Below are positions 2,496 through 25,245 of a stretch of DNA of 38,320 nucleotides, piece after piece. How positions within the stretch are numbered: position 1 is the stretch's first letter; every line of letters begins with the position of its first letter. The position numbers were made by a program, and so were the translations under genes. Origin of the DNA: a virus. Where the stretch lies: IMG/VR virus record IMGVR_UViG_3300029944_000028; one strand, given 5' to 3'. Below the pieces are notes generated by a model. The model saw nothing but the letters and a program-made list of their open reading frames with translations, ran no database searches and was not told where the DNA came from.

Positions 2496-2621
2496 AATGG
2501 AGATTATCAATCTAATTGCGCAGTCAACGATTGATTATCAGCCCGGATGAGAATGATTCTTAACTCTGGGCCCCGGCGAGGCGGGACGGCGGACGGTGGG
2601 AATTTTCGTACCCCCCATTCC

Positions 2622-2635
2622 CGATTCGCGAATCG
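2622..2635. promoter_or_regulatory. Perfect 14-bp palindrome CGATTCGCGAATCG upstream of terminase (operator or packaging-site candidate)
   Basis: Read directly. Flanked by GGGAAT (2598) and ATTCCC (2617) inverted repeats. Confidence 0.4.
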
Positions 2636-2681
2636 AAAAAACACGCATGAGTTAAACTCGCGAAAAACCACGGGTTTGAAA

Positions 2682-4685
2682 ATGGCATCACTGACCAGCG
2701 CAGGCAATCTGCGCATCATCTCGGAAGACCGCGCGCTGGCAAGCGCCATGGTGTTCCCGCATCGCCACCCGCAAGCCTCACCCCCGGCGCACGTGGAGGT
2801 GATGGACTTGTGGCGCAGCCAGGACGAGTTCGTTCTGATCGAGATGTTCCGCGAAGGCGGCAAGTCCACCCTGTCCGAGGAATTCCTGCTGCTCGAAGCG
2901 TGCTTCCAGAATTTCGGTTATTGCATCATCCTGGGTGAGACGTACACGAAAGCCTGCCAGCGCCTGGAAGCGATCAAGTTCGAGGCGTTGAAGAACATGA
3001 AGCTGCTCGCGCTTTTCGGCAAGTTGCGCGTGGCGGGCAACGTGTGGAACGAGAATCAGATCGAGCTAGCGAATGGCGTCATGATCGAGGCGCACGGCTG
3101 GGAAGAGGAAATTCGCGGCTTCAAGTGGCACGACTTGCGTCCGGACCGTTGCTACCTGGACGACGTGGAGAACAAGGAGCGCGTGAAGGACAAGACGGCA
3201 GTGGACGCCTCGATGCGCAAGATTTATCTTGAGCTCATGCCCGCCATGGACAAGGAGAAGGGGAAGATCCGCGTGACGGGAACCCCCCTGGCCGAAGACT
3301 GCATGATTGTGCGCATGAGGGAAAACCCGGATTGGACCTCACGCAAGTACCCGATCTGCAATGGCGATATCGATGACCCGAAGACGGCGGCGACCTGGCC
3401 CGAGCGCTACCCGATGGAGTGGATTCGCAAGAAGCGGGATCAAGCCGAGCGCGCGGGGCAGTTGCGCGGGTTTTTGCAGGAGTACATGCTGATGGCGATC
3501 GGCAGCACCGACAAACCGTTTGAAGAGAGGCACATCCATGAAACAGCGGTTGACCCTGCGCCGTGGCTTCCTAAGACTCTGGTGGTGGACCCTGCCCGTA
3601 CTGCTAACGTGGCTAGTTCTGACCGGACGGGCAGAGTGGTTCTTTCTCGGCTCGCCACACGCATATTCGTGCACGCCAGTTCCGGCGAGTTCTGGAAGCC
3701 CGACCAGATAATCGCGGATGCGTTCGATACGTCGGAACGGTTTGAGGGGGCGACGGTCGCCATCGAGAAGAACAGCCTGGACGAGTGGTTGCTCCAGCCG
3801 ATGCGCGCGGAGATGTTGCGACGCGGAGAGAGTTTGCCGCTCAAGGCGCTTCAGGCACCGCAAGACCGGAGCAAGGAGCAGTTCATCATGGGGCTGCAAC
3901 CTTTTTTCGAAGCGGGCGATATTGTGCTGGTGGGCGGACGCGGCGCGCATGCGCAGCTCGTCGCCGAGATCCAGAACTTCCCAAGCGGAAAGAGGGATAT
4001 CTTGAACGCCTTGGCCTATGCGCAGCGAGTGTTTTCCGGGACGGTGGTCTATGAAGACTTCGGCGAAAAGAATCTCACAAGCGAGTACGAACCGAGTGCG
4101 CGAGACGCGCTTGCGATTTGCTTTAACGCCACTGGAAACGAAACTACTGCTGTGCTCCTGGCTGTGGAAGGCGAGCGCCTTGTGGCTGTCGCCGACTGGA
4201 TTTCGCCTGTTTCCCCGGCGCAGGCTGTTCCAGACGTTATGCAACTTGTCCGCGCAGCGTTCCCGCGCGCTCGCGTCACAGCGTGGCTTCCGGCAGACGT
4301 GATGGACCAGCAGGACCGCCTGCCGTTGATGGCGGCGTTGCGCGCGGCGGGGTTGGCACCCATGCGCGGCGCGTACGCCACGATGGCGCGCGGCACGCTT
4401 TCCCCGCTCATCCGCACCGAGATGAAGAACCGCCGGCTGTTCCTGGTCGATAGCAACGCCCGGCACACCATGAACGCGATGGCCGGAGGCTATAACTTTC
4501 CAATCATGAAGAACGGCCAGCAGAACACGGAACCTGAGCGCGGGCCGCACCGCACCCTGGTCGAAGGGCTAGAGTGCGCCGCGTATGTGATTTGCTCCAA
4601 CGCTGGCAATTCCTTGCCGGATGACTTACATTCTGGTACTAACGCCCAAGGGCAACCCTATTTCACCTCTCTCCCACGGAGATAA
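2682..4685 (+). CDS. terL: Terminase large subunit
   Basis: Track ORF 2547..4685 trimmed to ATG 2682. Walker A-like REGGKST, Walker B-like CYLDDVE, nuclease-domain VVDPA. Sits upstream of the portal gene, separated from it only by four tiny ORFs. Confidence 0.85.
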   Translation: MASLTSAGNLRIISEDRALASAMVFPHRHPQASPPAHVEVMDLWRSQDEFVLIEMFREGGKSTLSEEFLLLEACFQNFGYCIILGETYTKACQRLEAIKFEALKNMKLLALFGKLRVAGNVWNENQIELANGVMIEAHGWEEEIRGFKWHDLRPDRCYLDDVENKERVKDKTAVDASMRKIYLELMPAMDKEKGKIRVTGTPLAEDCMIVRMRENPDWTSRKYPICNGDIDDPKTAATWPERYPMEWIRKKRDQAERAGQLRGFLQEYMLMAIGSTDKPFEERHIHETAVDPAPWLPKTLVVDPARTANVASSDRTGRVVLSRLATRIFVHASSGEFWKPDQIIADAFDTSERFEGATVAIEKNSLDEWLLQPMRAEMLRRGESLPLKALQAPQDRSKEQFIMGLQPFFEAGDIVLVGGRGAHAQLVAEIQNFPSGKRDILNALAYAQRVFSGTVVYEDFGEKNLTSEYEPSARDALAICFNATGNETTAVLLAVEGERLVAVADWISPVSPAQAVPDVMQLVRAAFPRARVTAWLPADVMDQQDRLPLMAALRAAGLAPMRGAYATMARGTLSPLIRTEMKNRRLFLVDSNARHTMNAMAGGYNFPIMKNGQQNTEPERGPHRTLVEGLECAAYVICSNAGNSLPDDLHSGTNAQGQPYFTSLPRR

Positions 4686-5219: not shown

Positions 5220-5395
5220 TGGAAGCTAAAAAGGTCTGGCCAATCGCAGAACTTCGGGATAAGAGCGTCTTGGGGAGCGCGTTGCAGGACGAGCTGTACG
5301 ATGTGATAACTAGTGAGAAGTTTGACAACATGTCAGTCTCGCAGACTATCGGCGTGCTTGAATTCCTGAAGTGGAACCTGATCAATGGCGCGTAA
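5219..5395 (+). CDS. Small acidic protein, 58 aa
   Basis: ATG 5219 to TAA 5393, MEAKKVWPIAELRDKSVLGSALQDELYDV.... Overlaps the portal start by 11 nt. Confidence 0.5.
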   Translation: MEAKKVWPIAELRDKSVLGSALQDELYDVITSEKFDNMSVSQTIGVLEFLKWNLINGA

Positions 5396-7565
5396 GAAAA
5401 AAGAAGACAAGAAACCCGACGAGCCCGTAATCGAGATAGTCGATTCACGGGCTATCGACGCTGAGAAGACAGGCGAAGAGCTAGAAAATTGGGCTGAAGA
5501 TCAGACTTCGGACGCCTACCTTGAGGCAGCAAAGCTGTATCCCAAGATCCAGAAGTGCTACGAGAATAAGCAGCAGCAATCGGATTGGGTGGAAGAGTAC
5601 TGGAACATCTACAATGCCCGACCCGACGAAAACCAGCAGTACACCGGCAACAGCCAGTGTTACATCCCCGCCGTGCGAGACGCCATCAACGCTCGCTGTA
5701 AGCGAACCCTCGCCACCCTCTTCCCCGCCAACTATAAGCACGTTGACGCCGTTGGCCCTGCGTCGGTTACGCCATTCCCTACGCTTGCACTCCTTGAGCA
5801 TTACATCCGGAAGACGAATCTGAAGGATATCGTCCGCGCCGATTTGCTCTCGGGCGACGTGACGGGCCAGTGGTGCTTGTACGTGGACTGGATGCGTACG
5901 ACGCGCCGGATCACCGAGCTGGTCAAGAAACCGCCGATCTTGTCTGACGATGAGGCAGGCGTGGAGGCGGAAGACGTAACGGTTGACGAAGAGTGGGACA
6001 CGGAAGAGAAAGAGATTGTCGATGAGATGCCCGACATCTCACCGATGGCGGTTGACGATATCGCCGTCTACCCGCCGACCGTGAACGATATCGAACGCGC
6101 AACAGCCACCGCCGTGCGCTTGCGCTTGTCCAAGGAGTCCGTTCAGCAGTTCATCGACGAGGGTGTTTTCGTCGGTTGGAGCGCGAAGGAAGTCATGGAC
6201 AATCTGAACGAGCCAGACGGCGGGCGTCAGAAACGCGTGCCGCAAAAACGCCGCACCGCTGATGCGGGCGTGCGCACCGAAGGCACCTATAAATACGCAC
6301 TGGTCTACGAAGTACATGCAAATATCGAACTGGAAGAAGACAAAGGCAAAGAGCCTGTCTTCATCTACTACGCCGGTCCTGAAACGATTCTTGGCATTAT
6401 CCGCAACCCATTTTGGACTAAGAAGCGCCCACTTATTTGCGCGCCAGTCGAACGCATCCAGGGGTCGTTTTACGGAATCTCGCGGGTAGAGCCGGTCAAG
6501 TACCTGCAATGGAATTTAAACGACTACTGGAACATGGGTCAGGACAGTGCGCAGTACGCGCTTCTGCCTATCGTCATGACTGATCCGCTCGCGAACCCCA
6601 ATTACCAGAGCATGGTGATGGGGCTTGCCGCCGTGTGGCTGACGAATCCGCAGACCACGCAGTTCGCGCAGTTCCCGGCAATCTACAAAGACGCCGTAGG
6701 CTTGTGCAACGCGATCAAGTCGCAGATCCAGGAATCGATGGACGTGAACGATGCGATGCTCGGCAAGGCACCGCCGGGGCGTAAGAACCAGGCGCAAGCC
6801 GCCGCGCAAGCCCAGTCGCAAGAATCGAACATCATCGACCACGCCAAGCGGTACGAGGGCGTGATGCTCAATCCGCTACTTGAGCGCATGTTTGAGCTTG
6901 ACCGCCAGTTCCGTACGAAAGAACTGACGGTCGTCACCATGGGTGAAGTCGGCGCACGCGCCAAGCAGGAAGAGATTCCCGTGCAGGCGTTCAGCGAACG
7001 TTATTTCTTCCGGTGGTGCGGTACGGCCTACCAGACTGGCATGCAACGCATGCAGCAAATGATCTCGTGGATGAACGTGTTGCGCGGCATTCCTCCGCAG
7101 CAGCTTGACGGACGCCGGCTTAACGTCGGCCCGATCCTGGAAATGGGCACCGAACAGATTTTCGGGCCTGAAGTCGCGCCGCGCATCCTGATTGACGAAC
7201 GCAACCTGTTCCACGTCGATCCGGAAGACGAGAACCTGATGATGCATAACGGCATGCCTGCCGAGGTGCACCCGGCGGATGATGACCAGCGCCACTTGAA
7301 GACGCACATGCACGGCGCGCAAATGACGGGCGACCCGATCGGATTGTTTCGCGCGCACATTCAGGCGCACCAGCAAGCCATGCAGCAGAAGATGCAAAAG
7401 GCGCAAGGCGCGCAACCGGGTCAGCCCGGCGTACCGGGCGGCGGGCAACCCGGCGTAGCAGGAACACCGCGCCCCGGCGCACAACCCGGCCAGCCGCGTC
7501 CGCAGCAACCCCCCGGCGCAATACATCCTGACGCCATGGCCGACCCAGCGGCGGGGCCGCGATGA
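5385..7565 (+). CDS. Portal protein with Q/P/G-rich C-terminal tail
   Basis: 726-aa ORF just downstream of terminase in the packaging module. The call rests on size and position. Confidence 0.7.
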   Translation: MARKKKEDKKPDEPVIEIVDSRAIDAEKTGEELENWAEDQTSDAYLEAAKLYPKIQKCYENKQQQSDWVEEYWNIYNARPDENQQYTGNSQCYIPAVRDAINARCKRTLATLFPANYKHVDAVGPASVTPFPTLALLEHYIRKTNLKDIVRADLLSGDVTGQWCLYVDWMRTTRRITELVKKPPILSDDEAGVEAEDVTVDEEWDTEEKEIVDEMPDISPMAVDDIAVYPPTVNDIERATATAVRLRLSKESVQQFIDEGVFVGWSAKEVMDNLNEPDGGRQKRVPQKRRTADAGVRTEGTYKYALVYEVHANIELEEDKGKEPVFIYYAGPETILGIIRNPFWTKKRPLICAPVERIQGSFYGISRVEPVKYLQWNLNDYWNMGQDSAQYALLPIVMTDPLANPNYQSMVMGLAAVWLTNPQTTQFAQFPAIYKDAVGLCNAIKSQIQESMDVNDAMLGKAPPGRKNQAQAAAQAQSQESNIIDHAKRYEGVMLNPLLERMFELDRQFRTKELTVVTMGEVGARAKQEEIPVQAFSERYFFRWCGTAYQTGMQRMQQMISWMNVLRGIPPQQLDGRRLNVGPILEMGTEQIFGPEVAPRILIDERNLFHVDPEDENLMMHNGMPAEVHPADDDQRHLKTHMHGAQMTGDPIGLFRAHIQAHQQAMQQKMQKAQGAQPGQPGVPGGGQPGVAGTPRPGAQPGQPRPQQPPGAIHPDAMADPAAGPR

Positions 7566-7909
7566 AGCCTTTCGTTGCGCGCTCCACCCCGTGGGGGACG
7601 ATCCAGACCGGCGCACTGTTCGACCGCCTGACGCCGCTTGAGCAGCAAGCGGTAATCGCGCACGAAGAAGGGCACATCAGGTTTCACCATGCGCGCACCC
7701 GCTTTCGGTGGATACTGACCGGGAAAGCGTTCTTCCAGGCAGAAAGGTTTTACGCGCTGTGCGAAGAGCAGGAGATGGAAGCTGACCGGTACGCCGCTTG
7801 GCAAGGTCACGCAGCCGGCCTGATCACTTTCTTGTTTCGACAGGGCTTGCATGTAAAATCCGATGGGTACCCGACGCACAAACAGCGCATAGAGGCTATC
7901 CATGGCTGA
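7562..7909 (+). CDS. Minimal M48-like zinc metallopeptidase, 115 aa
   Basis: AHEEGH (HExxH), downstream EMEAD, C-terminal THKQRIEAI, resembling the HtpX/Ste24-type motif order. ATGA overlap with the portal stop. Confidence 0.6.
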   Translation: MKPFVARSTPWGTIQTGALFDRLTPLEQQAVIAHEEGHIRFHHARTRFRWILTGKAFFQAERFYALCEEQEMEADRYAAWQGHAAGLITFLFRQGLHVKSDGYPTHKQRIEAIHG

Positions 7910-9360: not shown

Positions 9361-9879
9361 GTGCGCAAAAACCGTTTGGCCGAACTGATCGGCTCGTTGT
9401 TCCCGGCGATTCAGGGCCAAACCCCGACACTCGCAGATAACGGCTCGATGCCGGATCAAATCAGCCTTATCAACGCCCTCATTTCAGTGAACCCCTGGCC
9501 GGCGACTTCCTATAATGCCGCGACCAACACGACCGGATTCACCGCAACGCAACAACAAGTTATGGCAGCGGAGCAGTCGTACTTGAACTTAACCGGTACG
9601 CTCGGCGCAGGCGCAGCGCTTACCCTTCCGACTGTCGCAGCCTTGCTCGCTACCCTCACCCCGCAACAGGCGCAAGTCGGCTCGACTGTTGTGCTTCGCG
9701 TCATCAATAGTTCGGGCGGCGCATTCGCGTGGACCGTCACCACGAATACCGGTTGGACGCTTAGCGGCACGCAAAGCATCGCGCAGAACACATGGCGCGA
9801 CTTTATCGTTCAATTGACAAACGTCGGCACGACGCCTACCGCAACGATTCAGTCGGTCGGCACCGGCACCCAATCGTAA
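9361..9879 (+). CDS. Head-module protein, 172 aa, with LFP leader
   Basis: ORF track (GTG start). The N-terminus RKNRLAELIGSLFPAIQGQ is shared with scaffold and capsid. Confidence 0.65.
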   Translation: MRKNRLAELIGSLFPAIQGQTPTLADNGSMPDQISLINALISVNPWPATSYNAATNTTGFTATQQQVMAAEQSYLNLTGTLGAGAALTLPTVAALLATLTPQQAQVGSTVVLRVINSSGGAFAWTVTTNTGWTLSGTQSIAQNTWRDFIVQLTNVGTTPTATIQSVGTGTQS

Positions 9880-9889
9880 AGGCAAGACA

Positions 9890-10609
9890 ATGAATAAGCT
9901 GCTTAAAAAGCTGCTAGGCCTTCTCTTTCCGGGGATTGACGGCGATGCTGATGACCTTCCTGACGACATTGACCCACCTGATTCCGTCGATGATGGTATT
10001 GACGATCTTCCTGACGATGAGTTGCCTGACGATCCTCCTGCACGGCAGACAGCATCGCGCCGTGATGATACTGCTGACCGTTTGGCTCGGGTGGAGGCTG
10101 AAGTCGAACGCAGAGGCCGCGCAGCGGAAGAGCGGGAACGTTCGACACGCGCACCAGCGGTAGACGCGGAGTTCCAGCGCGAAGAAGAGCGCTTGCGCGC
10201 CGCCGACGTGTCGGAAATGGAACGCTGGCAGATCCAGGCAAACCGCACGTTGCGGGCTACGCAAGCCGAAGCACGGCAAGCGATGTTCCAGGCACAAGAC
10301 ATGTCGGATCGCACGCGCTTCGAATCGAAGATCGCAAGCGAACCGCGCCGCGCGAAGTACACCGAGCGCGTGGAAGAGGAAGTCAGGAAGGCGCAATCGC
10401 GCGGTCAGATGGCTTCCCGTGAAGACGTGTATTACTGGATGCTCGGCAAGGATATTGCGGACGGCAAGCTGAAGCCCAAAGCGAAAGCCTCGCCGACAGC
10501 CGGCGTACCGCGCGGCCGGACGCCCGGAGTGCGCAGCGACGTTCAGCGAGGAGGGGCGAAGTCGGATCACGAAAAGCGCGCCGCTCGTCTCGCGAACATG
10601 AATATTTAA
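9890..10609 (+). CDS. Scaffolding protein (candidate)
   Basis: 239 aa directly upstream of the capsid gene. Acidic DD-rich N-terminal region, then a highly charged R/E-rich helical region. N-terminus MNKLLKKLLGLLFPGIDGD. Confidence 0.6.
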   Translation: MNKLLKKLLGLLFPGIDGDADDLPDDIDPPDSVDDGIDDLPDDELPDDPPARQTASRRDDTADRLARVEAEVERRGRAAEERERSTRAPAVDAEFQREEERLRAADVSEMERWQIQANRTLRATQAEARQAMFQAQDMSDRTRFESKIASEPRRAKYTERVEEEVRKAQSRGQMASREDVYYWMLGKDIADGKLKPKAKASPTAGVPRGRTPGVRSDVQRGGAKSDHEKRAARLANMNI

Positions 10610-10624
10610 CCCTGAGAGGAAACC

Positions 10625-12043
10625 ATGTCCTTCCGTAAATTGGCCCTCCTTTGGGCTTCGCTGTTCCCCGGCGTAACGAATCAATCGACCAGCTTTACTG
10701 CTGACGTTGAAGCGTACATTCAAGAAGAAGTCGAACCGCTTGCGCGCCGCCAACTGGTCGCGTACCAGTTCGGCAAGCCGCTCAAGCTCGATACGAATCG
10801 CGGCACGACGTACACGGCTTCGCGCTACCAGCGCTTGCCGCTCCCGTTCGCGCCCTTGCAAGAAGGCGTGGCACCCCCCGGCGAAGCGATGACTTTGCAA
10901 CAAGTCTCGGCCACCGCGCAACAGTGGGGCGATCGCGTCATCATCACTGACGTGGCGAACCTGACCATCAAGCACCCGCTGTTTCAACAGGCGTGCGAAC
11001 TGGTCGCGTTGCAACTGCCGGAAACGCTGGAACGCAATACGTTCAACACGCTGATGGCAGCTACCCAGGTGAACTTCGCCAACGCGAAGACGAGCCGCGC
11101 GAACTTGCTGGCTACCGACGTGATGACGCCGCACGAGAACAACCGCATTGTCGGTTCGTTTCTCACCTACGGCGTACCCCGCTTCCTAGGCGACGAGCGC
11201 GAAGACATGATGATCGAGGCCGGCGCATACCGCGACCCTTCGAAGTCGCCCGCCGTCATGCAGCACTACATCGGGCTGATCCATCCGCTGTCCGCGCAAG
11301 ACATGCGCGAAAACACGACGGTCGCCACCGCCTGGTCCTACAGCGATGTGAACCGCCTGTATAACAATGAACTCGGACCCTTCGGCGGCACGCGTTTCGT
11401 TGAGTCGAACATGATGCCCTACTGGACCGGCGCGGCTCAGATCAACGGCACGGCATCGGCCTCGGGCGGCACGCTCGCGACCAACGCGGGATACCAGATC
11501 ATCGTGACCGCAGCGCCCGCGCAAACGTCCGTTGAGCAGGTGATTTATCAGGTGTCGAACGCGATCAGCGTCACCGGCCCCACGGGTTCGATCAGCGTCA
11601 CGCTGCCGCAACTGGCCGGGTACATCTTCAACGTGTACATCGGTACGTCCGCCACGCCGGGTAACCTCGCTACGGCTATCGGCCTGGGCGTACCGGTTAC
11701 CGGCCCACTCGCCGGACAAGCCACACAGTTGCAGCCGAACCAGACCGTCACCCTGACGGGCATCGGCGTAGCGCAAACGCCGCCTGCCGCCCCCGCTACG
11801 GGCGTGAGCGTGTTCCCGACGATCTTCATCGGTAACCACTCGTACGGCCAAGTGCTGCTCGAAAATCCCGAGTTCCACTACCTGACGGGCGCCGACAAGT
11901 CGGATCCGCTGAACCAAACGCGCGTCGTGTCGTGGAAGGTGTTCTACGGCTCGATCATCCTGAACCAAGCGTTTCTCGCGCGCGTTGAAGCCGGTTCGGG
12001 CTTCGCTCCGGGCTATACTGCTGGCACCGTAACCACCCCGTAA
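10625..12043 (+). CDS. Major capsid protein (HK97-fold, N4-gp56-like by recollection)
   Basis: 472 aa after the scaffold gene; strong SD GAGAGGAAACC. The family assignment is from memory, not from a search. Confidence 0.7.
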   Translation: MSFRKLALLWASLFPGVTNQSTSFTADVEAYIQEEVEPLARRQLVAYQFGKPLKLDTNRGTTYTASRYQRLPLPFAPLQEGVAPPGEAMTLQQVSATAQQWGDRVIITDVANLTIKHPLFQQACELVALQLPETLERNTFNTLMAATQVNFANAKTSRANLLATDVMTPHENNRIVGSFLTYGVPRFLGDEREDMMIEAGAYRDPSKSPAVMQHYIGLIHPLSAQDMRENTTVATAWSYSDVNRLYNNELGPFGGTRFVESNMMPYWTGAAQINGTASASGGTLATNAGYQIIVTAAPAQTSVEQVIYQVSNAISVTGPTGSISVTLPQLAGYIFNVYIGTSATPGNLATAIGLGVPVTGPLAGQATQLQPNQTVTLTGIGVAQTPPAAPATGVSVFPTIFIGNHSYGQVLLENPEFHYLTGADKSDPLNQTRVVSWKVFYGSIILNQAFLARVEAGSGFAPGYTAGTVTTP

Positions 12044-13639: not shown

Positions 13640-14098
13640 TTACAGCCACCCTTCTCCTCGCTTAATGCGAGTAATGGTCGAATGAACAACGCCTAACTCC
13701 TTCGCGATGCTATTACATGACTGCCCGGATTGGATCAGCAAACGAATCTGGGCTACCTGCTCAGCGGTGAATTTCGCCCTTACGTTTGTCTCGCCAGCAA
13801 AACCGCGTGCTCGACGTTTAGCTTTCATATCAGCCATGTTGACCAAATGCGAGCCCAAGAACAGGTGGTCAGGGTTGACGCAGCAAGTAACGTCGCAGCG
13901 ATGCAATACGTGCCATTGCCCGGGGTCGTTTTTGTGGATTAACCACGAGAAGCGATGGGCTTTCACTGGGCGACCGTCGATACCTAATGCGCCGTACCCG
14001 TACGCGTCAAGGCCTGCCGTCCACACCCAGCATCCGGCTTCCGGGATGCGCTCGATTTTTTCAAAGAACCGTATTACGGGGTCGCGCTTAGCAGGCAT
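13640..14098 (-). CDS. HNH homing endonuclease with C-terminal HTH
   Basis: AHRFSW...HVLHRCD...CCVNPDHLFLGSHLVNMADM (HNH_3-type) and a C-terminal SCNSIAKELGVVHSTITRIKRG helix-turn-helix. Antisense within the late operon. Confidence 0.85.
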   Translation of the reverse strand: MPAKRDPVIRFFEKIERIPEAGCWVWTAGLDAYGYGALGIDGRPVKAHRFSWLIHKNDPGQWHVLHRCDVTCCVNPDHLFLGSHLVNMADMKAKRRARGFAGETNVRAKFTAEQVAQIRLLIQSGQSCNSIAKELGVVHSTITRIKRGEGWL

Positions 14099-14153: not shown

Positions 14154-15769
14154 TAGCAAGATCCTACCCGGTTCAGCTCACGCCGAAAGGTTTGTGTGAT
14201 GCTTACGACTCGTCACAAGCATTTCCCGGCGCATGCCGCGCGCTCACGAACCTGATATTCGACCGGGGAAACCCTGAACTAGTCGTGTCACGCCCCGGCG
14301 TCGGCGCGGCGGTAACCACGTTTGCGGGCTTCACGACGCCGACGTTCGTTTCGGTGTTCATTACGATTGGCGCCATGGTTTACGGCATGGTTTCGACCGG
14401 GCGTAACCCAGGCTTTGACGAGCCCTTCGCTTATAACCTGCTTACGAACTTATTCGTCACGATCTCCGGGGTGAACTCCGCTAACGTGCCCGCGTCTCCC
14501 GCGACTTCGGGCGCGTGGACACCGCCCACGATGGCGGTAATCAGCACGAAGATTATCGTAACGCATCCGGGGTTTAGCGGCGTCGGCGCAGGTTTTTTCG
14601 GCGTCATTGACATATCGACGCCTGCTACACCCGCATGGTCTGCGGCAAACACCGCGACGAACGCCTTGCCGGGAGTGCCGACTTCGGTCGCGAACTTCAA
14701 TAACCGGGCGTGGTTCTCGGTCGCCAACATCGACTATTTCAGCGATGTGCTTGCGCCGACTACCCGCACAAACGCTACACAGTCCGTCACCCTGGGCGAC
14801 ACGACGCCGATCACCGCGCAGTCGGGTTTGCCTGTCACGACCACTTCTTCGGGGGTGCTCGGCGCGCTGATCGTGTTTAAAGGCACACAGATTTGGCAGA
14901 TCACGGGCGATATAACCACGAACAACTTGGCGCTGAACTTCATCTCGCTCACGACGGGCTGCATTGCACCTCGAAGTATTTCGCAAGTCCCGTTCGGTAT
15001 CGTGTTCGCGGGCTTGGACGCGCCTTACGTGCTCAGTTTCTTGGGCGCACTCTCAGCGCTCACGCACCAGCTCGGCAGTCAGACGGACGCCGACTTGCAA
15101 GTGCCTTTCCAGAATGCCACCGTGCCTTCGCGCATGGCGGCGTCGTTTGCCGGGAACATCTATCGGGTTTGCGTGCCGACAAGCATTTCGGGTGTTGCGC
15201 AAACGAATGACTACTGGTTCGATATCCGGCGCATGCGCTGGAACGGCCCGCACACGTTCGCTTATGACTGTGCAGCGGAGCAGGGGAACGGCTTCATCTT
15301 GTCGGGGGCGTCGCAAGGCGCAGCACTCTTCAGCAGCGCCTCGGCCCCCGCTCAAAACAGCGTGTATAACGACGCCGGTACGCAGTTGAACGTATCGCTC
15401 GCGTCGTCTACGTTCCCGAAGACCAACCACATGGCGCAGTTGCAAGTGATCGAGTCAACGCAGGAGTTGACTTCGACGGGTACGCCAGTCAACTACAACA
15501 TCACGGCAGTGGATGAGAAAGGCAATACGCTGAACAGCACCTACGTGATGACGCAGGCGGTCGGCGGCGTGTGGGGGACCGGTACGTGGGGTTCAGGCCT
15601 GCTGTGGAGTTCGACGGTGAACGTGCCCCAGGTGTACACGGTCCCGTGGTCCGCGCCCTTGGTGTTTCAGAAGATGGCTCTAAGCATCACGGCCACGTCT
15701 TCGAGCAGCCTTTCGATAGGCACTTTCTACGCACGCTATCAGGACACCGGTTATACCGGCCAGGGATAA
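14147..15769 (+). CDS. Tail structural protein, 540 aa (tail tubular B / nozzle candidate)
   Basis: Large ORF in the tail region of the late operon. Function inferred from position only. Confidence 0.5.
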   Translation: MPIARSYPVQLTPKGLCDAYDSSQAFPGACRALTNLIFDRGNPELVVSRPGVGAAVTTFAGFTTPTFVSVFITIGAMVYGMVSTGRNPGFDEPFAYNLLTNLFVTISGVNSANVPASPATSGAWTPPTMAVISTKIIVTHPGFSGVGAGFFGVIDISTPATPAWSAANTATNALPGVPTSVANFNNRAWFSVANIDYFSDVLAPTTRTNATQSVTLGDTTPITAQSGLPVTTTSSGVLGALIVFKGTQIWQITGDITTNNLALNFISLTTGCIAPRSISQVPFGIVFAGLDAPYVLSFLGALSALTHQLGSQTDADLQVPFQNATVPSRMAASFAGNIYRVCVPTSISGVAQTNDYWFDIRRMRWNGPHTFAYDCAAEQGNGFILSGASQGAALFSSASAPAQNSVYNDAGTQLNVSLASSTFPKTNHMAQLQVIESTQELTSTGTPVNYNITAVDEKGNTLNSTYVMTQAVGGVWGTGTWGSGLLWSSTVNVPQVYTVPWSAPLVFQKMALSITATSSSSLSIGTFYARYQDTGYTGQG

Positions 15770-15772
15770 ATC

Positions 15773-16507
15773 ATGCCAATCATCGGTACGCTTCCGAACA
15801 ACATTCAAGACGGGCAGATTATCGACGCTGTTCCTGTCATGGCGGATTTCAACTTCATCGTCAATCAGGTGAACGCGAACGCGCAGCAAAACACCGTACC
15901 TTCTACCGGCGCGCTGATTGCGGTTCGCCAATTCATTACCAGCACTACGTACACGCCGACACTCGGCACGAACAGCATCATCGCTGAGATGGTCGGCGGC
16001 GGCGGCGGCGGCGGCGGTGCGCCGGCAACAGGCGCTTCTCAGGTATCGGCAGGTGGCCCCGGCGGCGCCGGCGGTTACTTGCGGCAATACGCGATTACCG
16101 GGTTCAGTGGCGTCACCCTGACTGTCGGCACGGGCGGGGCAGGCGGCACGGGCGCCGCTGGCTCGAACGGTACGGCGTCGGCTCTTGCGCTAAACGGAGG
16201 CACCGTCCAGGCGAACGGGGGTTTCGGCGGCACACTGGCCGGCCCCGGAACACTTGCTTTGGGCCCTCCGGGTGCAGGTGGCATCACCACACCGGGAAAC
16301 ATCGTCAGCAGTACAGGCGCTCAGGCAGGGTTCAGTTCGCTTGCTTCACAAACCCTTGGGCTATTAGCCGCAGCCGGAGGCCCGCCGTCCGTACTTGGGC
16401 CTAGTTTCGGCGCAGGCGGTGCGGGGAGTGCCGCCGGCGGAAGTTCAGGAGGAGCAACGGGCGGCGCGGGAGCCCAAGGTGTCGTAATCATCTACGAATA
16501 CGCCTAA
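15773..16507 (+). CDS. Glycine-rich tail fibre / receptor-binding candidate, 244 aa
   Basis: N-terminus ...DGQIIDAVPVMADFNFIVNQVN typical of fibre N-termini by recollection. Gly-rich body including GGGGGGG encoded by (CGG)8 at 15994-16017. Confidence 0.55.
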   Translation: MPIIGTLPNNIQDGQIIDAVPVMADFNFIVNQVNANAQQNTVPSTGALIAVRQFITSTTYTPTLGTNSIIAEMVGGGGGGGGAPATGASQVSAGGPGGAGGYLRQYAITGFSGVTLTVGTGGAGGTGAAGSNGTASALALNGGTVQANGGFGGTLAGPGTLALGPPGAGGITTPGNIVSSTGAQAGFSSLASQTLGLLAAAGGPPSVLGPSFGAGGAGSAAGGSSGGATGGAGAQGVVIIYEYA

Positions 16508-18958: not shown

Positions 18959-20029
18959 ATGCCGTGGGGAGCCGCCGCCGCCGTAGCGGGAACAGCGATA
19001 TCGAGCGCCATGGCGCCAAGCGCCGGCAGTGCGGGCGCGAACTATTTCATGCAAGGCACTGCGGACCAAGCGAACAGCCAGTACCAGACGCTTGGGTACG
19101 ACGCATACAACACGCTCGCCAGCAACTACGGCACGACCGTTAATAACGCTTGGAACAACTACGCCGGAGCGCAACAGAACGCGCAGCAATACGGCGGAGC
19201 GTATCAAAATGCGGCGAACGCGGCAGGATCGCAGTACGGCAACCTCTCTGCTACGCAGCAGGGCTACGGGGCGCAGATGGGGCAGCAAGCGGCCCAGCTA
19301 GGGCAGCAAGCGACGCAAAATTACGGAACGCAGCAAGCCTTGCTGAATGCGGGTCAAAACGTCTACAACACGGCGATGGACCCGCAAGGGGCGCTATACG
19401 CCCGCACAAGCCAGCAATTGCAAGATCAGACAGGGGCCACGAATTCGATGTACGGGCTCGGGTCTTCGGCTGCGGGGGCAGGAGTCGCGAATAACGCGAT
19501 GTCGAATTTCAATATCGACTGGAACGCGCAACAGCTCCAAAATCAGGTGACAGGGCTAAATGCTTATACCGGTGCGGCTAATGCCGCCGGCAGCTACGGC
19601 TCGCTGGGTAATGCGGACTTATCGGGCGCTCAGGGCGCATACGGAAACTCGTCAACCATGTACGGCAACGCCGCGAACAGCATGCTTCAAAGCGGCTCCG
19701 CGGGGTACGGTGCGGCGACTCAGATTAACGGTCAGAACACGACGGATTTGAACGCGTACAACAATTCCATGAACCAAGGCGTTTATTCGCCTATGAGCGC
19801 GATGCAGTCAACAGATCTCGGCTACATCTCGCAGGGGTCGAGTGCGGCGAATAGCGCAGCGCAGAACCAGTACTCGGCGGCGTCGGCTCAGGCTAACCAG
19901 TGGGGGAACGCCGCGAGCGGAGCGATCAGCAGTATAGGTAGCGGGTTCGGTAACGGGTATAGCGGGTACGGAAGCGCCACGAGTTCGCCATACTATAGCG
20001 GCAGTAACTCCTACGGCTTTACGATGTGA
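18959..20029 (+). CDS. N/Q/G/A/S/Y-rich low-complexity virion (internal/ejection?) protein, 356 aa
   Basis: ORF track; strong SD AAGGAG. No Lys and very few charged residues. Confidence 0.6.
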   Translation: MPWGAAAAVAGTAISSAMAPSAGSAGANYFMQGTADQANSQYQTLGYDAYNTLASNYGTTVNNAWNNYAGAQQNAQQYGGAYQNAANAAGSQYGNLSATQQGYGAQMGQQAAQLGQQATQNYGTQQALLNAGQNVYNTAMDPQGALYARTSQQLQDQTGATNSMYGLGSSAAGAGVANNAMSNFNIDWNAQQLQNQVTGLNAYTGAANAAGSYGSLGNADLSGAQGAYGNSSTMYGNAANSMLQSGSAGYGAATQINGQNTTDLNAYNNSMNQGVYSPMSAMQSTDLGYISQGSSAANSAAQNQYSAASAQANQWGNAASGAISSIGSGFGNGYSGYGSATSSPYYSGSNSYGFTM

Positions 20030-23870: not shown

Positions 23871-23899
23871 ACTATAGCAGTTGCAAAACGAGAATACAA
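23871..23899 (-). promoter_or_regulatory. Conserved-family promoter, copy 2 (TTGTAT-17-TGcTATAGT)
   Basis: Minus strand reads GCATTGTATTCTCGTTTTGCAACTGCTATAGTGG. The -35 overlaps ATG 23899 of the PurD-like gene. Confidence 0.65.
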
Positions 23900-25245
23900 T
23901 GCGAATTTTGGTGATCGATGTTGGTTCTAACGCTCTCGACTTGTGCATGCGCTGGCAGCAGCAAGGCCACGAGGTGCGCTGGTACGACAAGCCGCGCCCG
24001 GACGGCACGGACCGGCACGCAGGCGAAGGCATCGTCACCAAGATCACGGACTTCGGCGATTTGCGCAAGAAGTGGATCGGCTGGGCCGATATGATCTACA
24101 CCCCTGACAACGTGTGCTATCTCGATTTGCTTGAACCGTACCGCAAGATCGGCTACCCGGTTTTCGGCTGCAATCTCGACGCCGTAGAGTGGGAATTGGA
24201 CCGTGAAGTCGGGCAGAAAGTCATGGAAGAGTGCGGACTGAAGACGATTCCCGGCAAGACGTTTCACGATTACGACACCGCCACGGCGTACGTGAAAAAG
24301 CACGGCAAGGCCTTCGTTTCGAAGCCCTCGGGCGATGGTGAGCGCGCCATGTCCTATGTCGCAAACAACGCCGCCGATCTGGTCTACATGTTGCAGCGCT
24401 GGAAGGGCGTCGATAAATACCGTAAAGCCGCGAAGGAAATGGGTTTTATCCTCCAGGAGAAGGTGAACGGCGTTGCCGAGATGGCGGTCGGCGGATGGTT
24501 CATCCCAGGCGTTGGCTGGTCGAAAGCCGGATGGGTTGAAAACTTCGAGCACAAGTCCCTCTTCGCTGGCGACCTGGGCGTAGCCACGGGGGAGATGGGT
24601 ACGATCGTGCGCGTCGTGAAGAAGTCAAAACTCGCTGACATGATGCTTAAACCGATCACCGATCACCTTCACGCGGTTGGTTATGTCGGCTATGTTGACG
24701 TGGCCACAATTATCGACGAAGACGGTACGCCTTGGCCTCTTGAATTCACCATGCGCGACGGATGGCCTATCCGCCACAACCTGACATCGCTCATTGAAGG
24801 CGACCAAGCGCAGTGGATGCTCGATGCGCTCAATGGGCGCGATACGCTGAAGATCAAGACCGATTTGGTGAGCGCGAGTGTCGTTATGGCGCTGCCGGAC
24901 TTCCCATACTCCCGCATCACGAACCGCGAACTGTGTGGCATTCCGGTCTATGGTGCCGAAGACTTAGCGCACCTCCACTGGTCGGAAATGATGATCGGTG
25001 ATGCGCCGCGCGAGGTGAACGGGAAAGTTGTCGACCTGCCGGGGCCGGTTACGGCGGGTGATTACACCCTGGTCGCGACCGGCGAAGGCGCGACCGTTTC
25101 CGGCGCTCGGCGAAGCGTGTACAGTGCGATCAAGAAAGTTAAAGTACCGAACAGCCCCTTCTATCGCGTCGATATCGGTTCGAAGATGCGAAAGCAGTTA
25201 CCGGTTCTTCAGGCTCTCGGATTTGCAATAGGAATGGAGTATTGA
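23899..25245 (+). CDS. PurD-like ATP-grasp ligase (phosphoribosylamine-glycine ligase homologue)
   Basis: Collinear with E. coli PurD as I recall it: MRILVID, FVSKPSGDG, ILQEKVNGVE, FEHKSLFAGDLGVATGEMG, PLEFTMRDG, and C-terminal VATGEGATVSGARRSVYSAIKKV...YRVDIG. Confidence 0.75.
   Translation: MRILVIDVGSNALDLCMRWQQQGHEVRWYDKPRPDGTDRHAGEGIVTKITDFGDLRKKWIGWADMIYTPDNVCYLDLLEPYRKIGYPVFGCNLDAVEWELDREVGQKVMEECGLKTIPGKTFHDYDTATAYVKKHGKAFVSKPSGDGERAMSYVANNAADLVYMLQRWKGVDKYRKAAKEMGFILQEKVNGVAEMAVGGWFIPGVGWSKAGWVENFEHKSLFAGDLGVATGEMGTIVRVVKKSKLADMMLKPITDHLHAVGYVGYVDVATIIDEDGTPWPLEFTMRDGWPIRHNLTSLIEGDQAQWMLDALNGRDTLKIKTDLVSASVVMALPDFPYSRITNRELCGIPVYGAEDLAHLHWSEMMIGDAPREVNGKVVDLPGPVTAGDYTLVATGEGATVSGARRSVYSAIKKVKVPNSPFYRVDIGSKMRKQLPVLQALGFAIGMEY

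Follow-up and report, generated by a model that had tools for sequence, protein, structure and literature searches.

A conserved leader on several virion proteins of a podovirus-like phage lineage and a candidate phage-encoded M48-like peptidase for its proposed removal

The virus record IMGVR_UViG_3300029944_000028 of IMG/VR (38,320 bp, 58% GC; hereafter the window, meaning this whole stretch) carries three consecutive virion genes, for a 172-residue protein, a scaffold candidate and the major capsid protein (MCP), whose products open with the same short N-terminal leader. The leader is conserved in related phages, its motif co-varies among the proteins of one genome, it is detachable at a fixed junction, and it co-occurs with the gene of a small peptidase of M48 type whose catalytic site is conserved and which, in the window, overlaps the end of the portal gene. 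We propose, with a probability of roughly 55%, that the leaders are virion propeptides cut at the G/A↓V/I junction (↓ marks a cut or proposed junction throughout) by this phage-encoded mini-M48 peptidase, unmasking native assembly N-termini. Cleavage itself, the exact scissile bond, the enzyme that cuts and the purpose of the leader are what we infer from these patterns.

One leader on three consecutive genes

The three genes and their leaders are:

9361..9879, + strand: 172-residue virion protein; GTG start, AGGAG 8 nt 5' of it
9361..9408, + strand: its leader, residues 1-16, (M)RKNRLAELIGSLFPA, then IQGQ; proposed junction A16↓I17
9890..10609, + strand: scaffold candidate, 239 residues, adjoining the MCP gene on its upstream side
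9890..9934, + strand: its leader, residues 1-15, MNKLLKKLLGLLFPG, then IDGD; proposed junction G15↓I16
10625..12043, + strand: MCP, 472 residues; GAGAGGAAA upstream of the start
10625..10672, + strand: its leader, residues 1-16, MSFRKLALLWASLFPG, then VTNQ; proposed junction G16↓V17

All three leaders are 15-16 residues long, basic and Leu-rich, and end in LFP(G/A) followed by I or V, with LFP at residues 13-15 of the 172-residue protein and the MCP and at residues 12-14 of the scaffold candidate. The pattern L[FLIM]P[GA][IVL], searched as a regular expression, has just five matches over all six frames of the window, three of which are these N-termini. A weight matrix trained solely on the leaders of MCP homologues gives the scaffold candidate 20.5 bits and the 172-residue protein 11.2 bits, which makes them the top non-MCP N-termini of the window; a random 32-residue segment reaches at least 11.2 bits at a rate of about 4e-4 and at least 20.5 bits at less than 5e-6. 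The DNA beneath the motif reads TTG TTC CCG GCG ATT (L-F-P-A-I) in the 172-residue protein gene, CTC TTT CCG GGG ATT (L-F-P-G-I) in the scaffold-candidate gene and CTG TTC CCC GGC GTA (L-F-P-G-V) in the MCP gene; the LFP codons differ at synonymous third positions, so the similarity is held at the protein level. When the first 17 residues are removed, BLASTP among the three proteins finds nothing significant.

A sequence-only reading of the window had already described a leader common to three consecutive genes, attached to otherwise unrelated proteins and encoded by DNA that is not itself repeated. All of this stands, on the reading frames, the Shine-Dalgarno sequences, the pattern and weight-matrix statistics, the BLASTP comparison and the differing codons, and an alignment of homologues finds the leader in orthologues of all three genes across a comparison set of about 200 related loci. 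Might the likeness nonetheless be chance, or a product of wrongly called starts? The GTG start of the 172-residue protein gene could be taken that way, but a Shine-Dalgarno sequence precedes each of the three starts, no start codon lies near any junction, and the chance rates just given, together with the keeping of the leader in hundreds of homologues, effectively refute this explanation. A separate claim, that the leaders form amphipathic helices, was dropped: their hydrophobic moment is matched by a fraction of 0.10-0.35 of shuffled sequences.

What are the proteins that carry the leader? The 472-residue protein is, by its profile matches, an N4-gp56-family MCP (TIGR04387, 135.5 bits against a cut-off of 60, 2.4e-39; phrog_1357, 2.3e-40). 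It has more than 2000 homologues, many of them on contigs of 38-41 kb or in Burkholderia, Paraburkholderia and Rhodanobacter genomes; among phage records there is neither a cultured close relative nor a near relative at the DNA level. The 239-residue protein matches no family in profile searches. Past the leader it is at first very acidic, then charged through its middle, and it ends in a basic C-terminus; its position and this acidic, charged make-up are what mark it as a candidate scaffold.

The 172-residue protein has 424 homologues, none of them named, and a weak match to phrog_673; sequence searches of the PDB with it and with the MCP gave no useful match. In its AF2 model (pLDDT 82) the leader forms a helix of its own (residues 2-13) and a beta domain is modelled with confidence; residues 15-22, which span the junction, are disordered, at pLDDT below 50. 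We count this arrangement, a separate leader helix followed by a disordered junction, in favour of a propeptide. The top Foldseek match of the model is chain 9ny6_C, a capsid spike of Pseudomonas phage Pa223 (E 5.8e-4, prob 1.0, TMq only 0.35), and this external spike is the only good PDB match for the beta domain; the protein may tentatively be taken for a spike or decoration protein on the outside of the capsid. In relatives, proteins of 265-300 residues encoded just upstream (L088 4873-5739, L195 7743-8540) cluster with the 172-residue family as paralogues, and these too have the leader. Shortly past the leader (window 9409-9480) both groups share the motif [DN]G-x-[IVM]-P-D, which may be a capsid-attachment segment of the spike-like paralogues.

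The leader in related phages

Of the 120 closest MCP homologues, 119 have the leader, and the scaffold-candidate orthologues present 83 distinct versions of it. Its length ranges from 8 to 29 residues and its upstream part is variable; the end follows the consensus L-(L/I)-(G/A)-(F/L)-L-(F/T)-(P/L)-(G/A)↓(V/I/A), conserved most strongly over the last 5 residues and P1'. Past the junction every protein family keeps its own conserved sequence, strongly so in the MCP (VTNxS).

The motif comes in several types, LFPG, LTLG, FRPA, LFPR/Q and FLPL, that vary between genomes and agree within one. Examples are:

L088: FLTLG (MCP), FLTLG (scaffold), FLSLG and YLSLG (two more proteins)
L190, L189: LFRPA, FIRPA and IFRPA on different proteins
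L097: LFPR, LFPQ and VWPR on different proteins
L136: FLPL and LFPL on different proteins
L089, L106: LTLA or LTLP variants

In a permutation test over 87 distinct MCP/scaffold pairs, the mean best score for the match between the two motifs is 12.7 within genomes against 8.3 across them (p ~5e-5, with no correction for phylogeny).

The leader also reaches beyond the head. A census with the weight matrix places it on the scaffold, the MCP and the spike-like family with its 265-300-residue paralogues, on tail fibres of L082, L094, L102, L104 and L195 (which have PF07484, the Collar domain, and PHROG tail-fibre matches), on a 122-residue protein (L088, L106) and on a 374-residue protein (L204). 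Two further virion proteins of the window belong in this comparison:

15773..16507, + strand: tail-fibre protein without leader; phrog_863, phrog_6202 and phrog_454 matches
18959..20029, + strand: 356-residue virion protein without leader; leader-bearing homologue in L204 (BLASTP 1e-18)

The L204 homologue of the latter opens MRKPAFLLLLLAYFCPG↓ILGT. The 88-residue protein of the window was considered as a leaderless version of the 122-residue protein of L088 and L106, and rejected (BLAST E = 0.11).

A detachable module

Six MCPs at 50-59% identity have no leader and start at the junction (for example MAVNSASAF.. and MASVNKSASF..), and most MCP representatives at 30-57% identity begin M↓A/T/V-x-N at the position of V17 (M↓ATNNAATF, M↓AVNQSSSF); even the distant starts M↓ATN.. 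and M↓AVN.. align exactly with V17-T18-N19, and the MCP of Bacillus phage Pony starts MATN... The fibres follow the same rule. Leaderless ones open with M-x-I-I-G/S-x-L-P, in line with ..AP↓VIIGTLP in those that have the leader, and the start of the window's own fibre, MPIIGTLPNN, aligns with the junction of the leader-bearing L195 fibre, MILRRLLSFFFAP↓VIIGTLPNV. Because leaderless MCP and fibre homologues begin exactly at the junction, the leader is a detachable module. As these alignments have it, the leader is an add-on that has been gained and lost gene by gene, and the sequence past the junction is the native N-terminus.

These starts bear on whether the leader is removed at all. It could instead remain in place as a binding tag, permanent or transient: as a docking helix for a common partner (the portal, the scaffold, a chaperone or an M48-like chaperone) or as a targeting signal of the T4 kind. 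A predicted helix of conserved character on several assembly proteins would suit such a role, co-variation within genomes fits any common partner that co-evolves with the leader, and the scaffold leader of phage 80alpha, discussed below, is required for assembly whether or not it is cut. But leaderless MCP, fibre and 356-residue orthologues work in related phages, some of them in leader-bearing genomes, so the leader is not a structural part of virion interfaces; conservation peaks around the junction, as it does at a cleavage site; and the catalytic residues of the candidate partner are invariant. On balance we consider an uncleaved leader unlikely. The sequence-only reading had offered docking to portal or scaffold, and an analogy to the capsid-targeting sequence (CTS) of T4, as explanations. 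Neither docking into the capsid interior nor the T4 analogy was borne out: relatives have the leader on tail fibres, on the spike-like protein and on other virion proteins, and its presence on external proteins argues against an encapsidation signal.

With basic residues at its N-terminus, hydrophobic ones after them and a small residue at P1, the leader also recalls a signal peptide for Sec or membrane targeting that host signal peptidase would cut, and large fibre-like proteins of some relatives do open with classic-looking signal peptides (MKKILALLLFVSTVALAQ↓N). In a Sec signal peptide the hydrophobic core runs unbroken for some 10 residues or more, and positions -1 and -3 are small. The leaders, by contrast, are short, charges interrupt two of the three (E8 in the 172-residue protein, K6 and K7 in the scaffold candidate), and P3 Phe with P2 Pro or Leu is, by inspection, off the AxA rule. 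Capsid and scaffold proteins, moreover, assemble in the cytoplasm, and we regard a signal peptide as very improbable.

Three further observations concern N-termini of relatives. The Sec-like start, MKKILALLLFVSTVALAQ↓NYPSPTY, belongs to a fibre-like gene at the position of the window's 368-residue gene (L001 3666-5687; also L043, L047 and L049); it is odd for a virion protein and may mark a different kind of leader, or a protein that is secreted or associated with lipid. The distant MCPs P0173, P0188 and P0219 have hydrophobic, transmembrane-like N-terminal extensions of 30-40 residues ahead of the conserved N-terminus; the P0173 lineage (L212-L214) was considered as a second instance of the leader system and rejected, as it has no HExxH peptidase and no shared leader. 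A scan with P0295 yielded no locus. In L214, a distant phage of 41% GC, a 195-residue protein encoded after a nozzle-like gene (14599-15186) starts MADLTQLFPGIQQPEP, which resembles the LFPA↓IQGQ junction of the 172-residue protein; L214 has no leader system, and the likeness may be chance or a remnant.

A minimal M48-like peptidase after the portal

The candidate enzyme and its upstream neighbour are:

5385..7565, + strand: portal protein; phrog_1216 and phrog_332 matches
7562..7909, + strand: mini-M48 peptidase, 115 residues; proposed leader peptidase

The peptidase ATG overlaps the portal stop (ATGA), and the 3' end of the gene overlaps the next gene by 8 nt. The protein matches PF01435 at 24.5 bits, above the gathering cut-off of 20.3. 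Its HExxH motif is H34-E35-E-G-H38 and the Glu that would serve as third zinc ligand lies in ExxAD, E71-M-E-A-D75; H34, E35, H38, E71 and D75 are invariant in 21 homologues with a mean identity of 29%, and the HExxH motif is invariant in 22 closer homologues as well. The AF2 model (pLDDT 93) is a compact helical domain of 115 residues that resembles the catalytic domain of ZMPSTE24/Ste24 (TMq 0.77, prob 1.0, Foldseek E 0.055). The M48 enzymes Ste24/ZMPSTE24 and HtpX share with it HExxH, the Glu of ExxAD further downstream, the conserved tail HP...R and the fold of the catalytic domain; they differ from the phage protein, which spans 108-160 residues across the family, is encoded in a phage structural operon and has no transmembrane chamber, the multi-pass membrane architecture of Ste24/HtpX being absent from the 115-residue model. 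On sequence and model together, minimal M48-like catalytic core is the name that fits it best.

Leader and peptidase go together. The peptidase gene always lies 3' of the portal gene in the structural operon, sometimes with inserted genes between the two. Of the leader-bearing loci that cover the 3' part of the portal gene, all 132 have it (74 distinct MCP/peptidase pairs). It occurs in 0 of 6 leaderless relatives, and two GenBank phages with 24-27% MCP identity have neither leader nor peptidase.

Part of the peptidase family shows a further feature. In the homologues of L120 (1427-1954) and L096, some 25 hydrophobic residues are inserted between the helices of HExxH and ExxAD, at the site of the transmembrane helices of HtpX-type M48 enzymes, a hint that these members associate with membranes.

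Comparison with known maturation systems

In phage 80alpha, the host protease Prp removes 13-14 residues from the capsid and scaffolding proteins, which share an L27 motif, and another phage has the motif on one of its tail proteins (PMC5744158). The sequence-only reading had held a leader shared by a capsid protein and its scaffold to be without precedent; given 80alpha, that was wrong. Both systems have a short N-terminal leader common to MCP and scaffold and present on non-homologous virion proteins too, with a conserved hydrophobic motif directly before the cut (here the proposed cut) and mature proteins that are otherwise unrelated. They differ in the motif, LNLQFF↓A in 80alpha and L-x-L-F-P-G↓V here; in the enzyme, a host cysteine protease whose processing of L27 is mimicked there and a candidate phage zinc metallopeptidase in phages of Proteobacteria here; and in standing, since cleavage is proven there and inferred here.

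These parallels raise the possibility that the leader is cleaved by a host protease, with virion proteins mimicking a host substrate and the mini-M48 doing something else. This is how the one shared capsid/scaffold leader studied by experiment works, a motif that tracked a host enzyme would co-vary within genomes just as well, and no co-evolution between peptidase and motif was detected. Prp and the long form of L27 are characteristic of Firmicutes along with some other phyla, and E. coli is without Prp (PMC9405229), whereas the known hosts here are Burkholderia and Paraburkholderia prophage carriers, for example Paraburkholderia phenoliruptrix LMG 22037, P. tropica LMG 22274, Burkholderia semiarida CCRMBC74 and B. 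pyrrocinia. The window leaders, which end LFPG↓V, LFPG↓I and LFPA↓I, do not match (K)LNLQFF↓A(S); no PF04327 (Prp) protein is present among the window proteins scanned. Judging by its sequence, a catalytically intact-looking protease is encoded in every leader-bearing structural operon and in none of the leaderless genomes. Capsid-superfamily members with Prp-type leaders can, moreover, carry their own Prp in the same slot. We think a host protease quite unlikely.

Such a phage-encoded Prp is found in L216 (IMGVR_UViG_3300045988_034795), which has a P22-like portal, a Prp cysteine protease (6551-6888; PF04327, 2e-16), a scaffold beginning MEETKIRLNLALFD↓ and an MCP beginning MNTNICLDLQLFA↓. 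Leaders resembling L27, such as ..NLRLFD↓ and ..LNLRLFE↓, are confined to distant capsid-superfamily relatives (P0265, P0293, P0309, L216). The arrangement in L216 parallels that of the window, with the protease in the slot after the portal and before scaffold and MCP, a phage protease paired with matching leaders, and a capsid of the Phage_capsid_4 superfamily; the fold and catalysis are non-homologous (PF04327 Cys/His against M48 Zn), and the leader motif is different.

Textbooks describe the maturation proteolysis of tailed phages as serine-protease chemistry confined to the prohead: HK97 gp4, T4 gp21, lambda C and P2 gpO are serine prohead proteases that act inside the prohead on head proteins, and the CTS of T4, which is cleaved at (L/I)xE, steers proteins into the scaffolding core. 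Like these systems, the window has a phage protease beside portal and scaffold genes that would remove N-terminal segments of several head proteins; unlike them, the leader lies on fibres and a spike-like protein as well, and the candidate enzyme is a metallopeptidase. The window junctions contain no LxE or IxE, and neither a gp21-like protease nor any other classical prohead protease was detectable among the window proteins. To our knowledge only one shared capsid/scaffold leader has been described, and it depends on a host ribosomal-protein protease. Phage-encoded Prp homologues in head modules include, besides that of L216, the cysteine protease that processes the capsid of phage Cp-1 (PMC9405229).

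Literature searches returned nothing relevant on a metalloprotease prohead protease or an M48 protein in phage head modules, and nothing on the leader motif, its spread to fibres and spike-like proteins, or a link to a minimal phage M48; these three elements appear to be undescribed. If it does cut the leader, the mini-M48 would be a new type of enzyme for a known kind of virion maturation.

How the system may work

Why would a phage put the same leader on proteins that share nothing else? We suggest that the three N-termini are copies of one module, a propeptide made of a basic start, a Leu-rich helix and a conserved end, which this phage lineage would attach to the MCP, the scaffold candidate and the spike-like protein and, in relatives, also to the fibre and other virion proteins. 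The virion proteins would be made as precursors. The mini-M48, predicted to be co-transcribed and translationally coupled with the portal, would recognise the conserved end of the leader and cut at or next to the G/A↓V/I junction, exposing the native N-termini (in the MCP, VTNQS..) that leaderless relatives make directly. Until then the leader would plausibly mask N-terminal assembly interfaces or keep the proteins soluble. Such a scheme would work like the Prp/L27-motif system of Firmicute phages, with a non-homologous enzyme encoded by the phage. The sequence-only reading had listed a protease-recognition signal, read by the adjacent mini metallopeptidase, among its options, and this one has become the probable one, given the perfect co-occurrence, the invariant catalytic residues, the junction starts and the Prp found in the same slot.

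Several points weigh against cleavage by the mini-M48. The division between genomes with leader and peptidase and genomes with neither coincides with one clade boundary (MCP identity at least 73% on one side, outgroups at most 59%) and thus amounts to a single evolutionary event, so that the co-occurrence could be coincidental. With the peptidases mapped on the MCP tree, no peptidase residue tracks the motif type beyond phylogeny, and L097 has an LFPR motif yet a peptidase typical of its LTLG clade. The enzyme is only 115 residues long and does not have the membrane chamber of characterised M48 enzymes, so its activity is putative, and the modelled fold match carries a weak Foldseek E of about 0.05. 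A tblastn search with three peptidase variants against 50,697 GenBank phage records gave no match and thus no cultured phage that carries it. Phage 80alpha, finally, can do without cleavage of its capsid protein, and although it requires the scaffold leader, that leader may stay uncut (PMC5744158), so the essential role of the leader may be something other than its removal.

We venture a broader proposal more tentatively. M48 proteins of about 115 residues may be an unrecognised class of virion maturation protease that removes a co-evolving propeptide from head and tail proteins and that, by non-orthologous displacement in a single capsid superfamily, displaced, or was displaced by, a Prp-type cysteine protease in the same genomic slot; the leader would then be a portable 'assemble-after-cleavage' tag, gained and lost gene by gene.

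Genomic setting

The window looks like a nearly complete podovirus-like phage genome. Features upstream of the portal gene include:

7-1317: primase/helicase
2547-4685: TerL

The peptidase gene is followed by a fibre-like gene (368 residues), the 88-residue protein gene and then the three leader genes, downstream of which lie more genes for structure, lysis and replication. Two other genes in the window are:

13640-14098, - strand: HNH homing-endonuclease-like gene (PF13392 plus helix-turn-helix domains) between + strand structural genes, probably a mobile intruder in the virion operon
23881-25245, + strand: ATP-grasp protein, 454 residues, related to phosphoribosylglycinamide synthetase (GARS_A, GARS_C), at the end of the structural/lysis block and unusual for a 38 kb phage

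The portal has a low-complexity C-terminal tail rich in Gln, Pro and Gly (7380-7565, ..QPGQPGVPGGGQPGVAGTPRPGAQPGQPRPQQPPG..). Its internal LATLFPAN (TLATLFPAN, residues ~105-118, TLATLFPANYKH) was considered as a docking copy of the leader motif and rejected: this LFPxN is conserved in leaderless relatives and in genomes of the LTLG type and is therefore unrelated to the leader.

Implications

If the proposal is correct, the mini-M48 would represent a third enzymatic solution to phage maturation proteolysis, and propeptide control would extend from the head to tail components. It would also explain the 'Zn-dependent protease' gene that lies beside the portal gene in hundreds of soil and Burkholderia prophage genomes, and the leader with its protease would constitute a compact tag/protease system. 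For structural and proteomic data on these capsids, the rule that the mature MCP should start at VTN.. would correct predicted mature N-termini.

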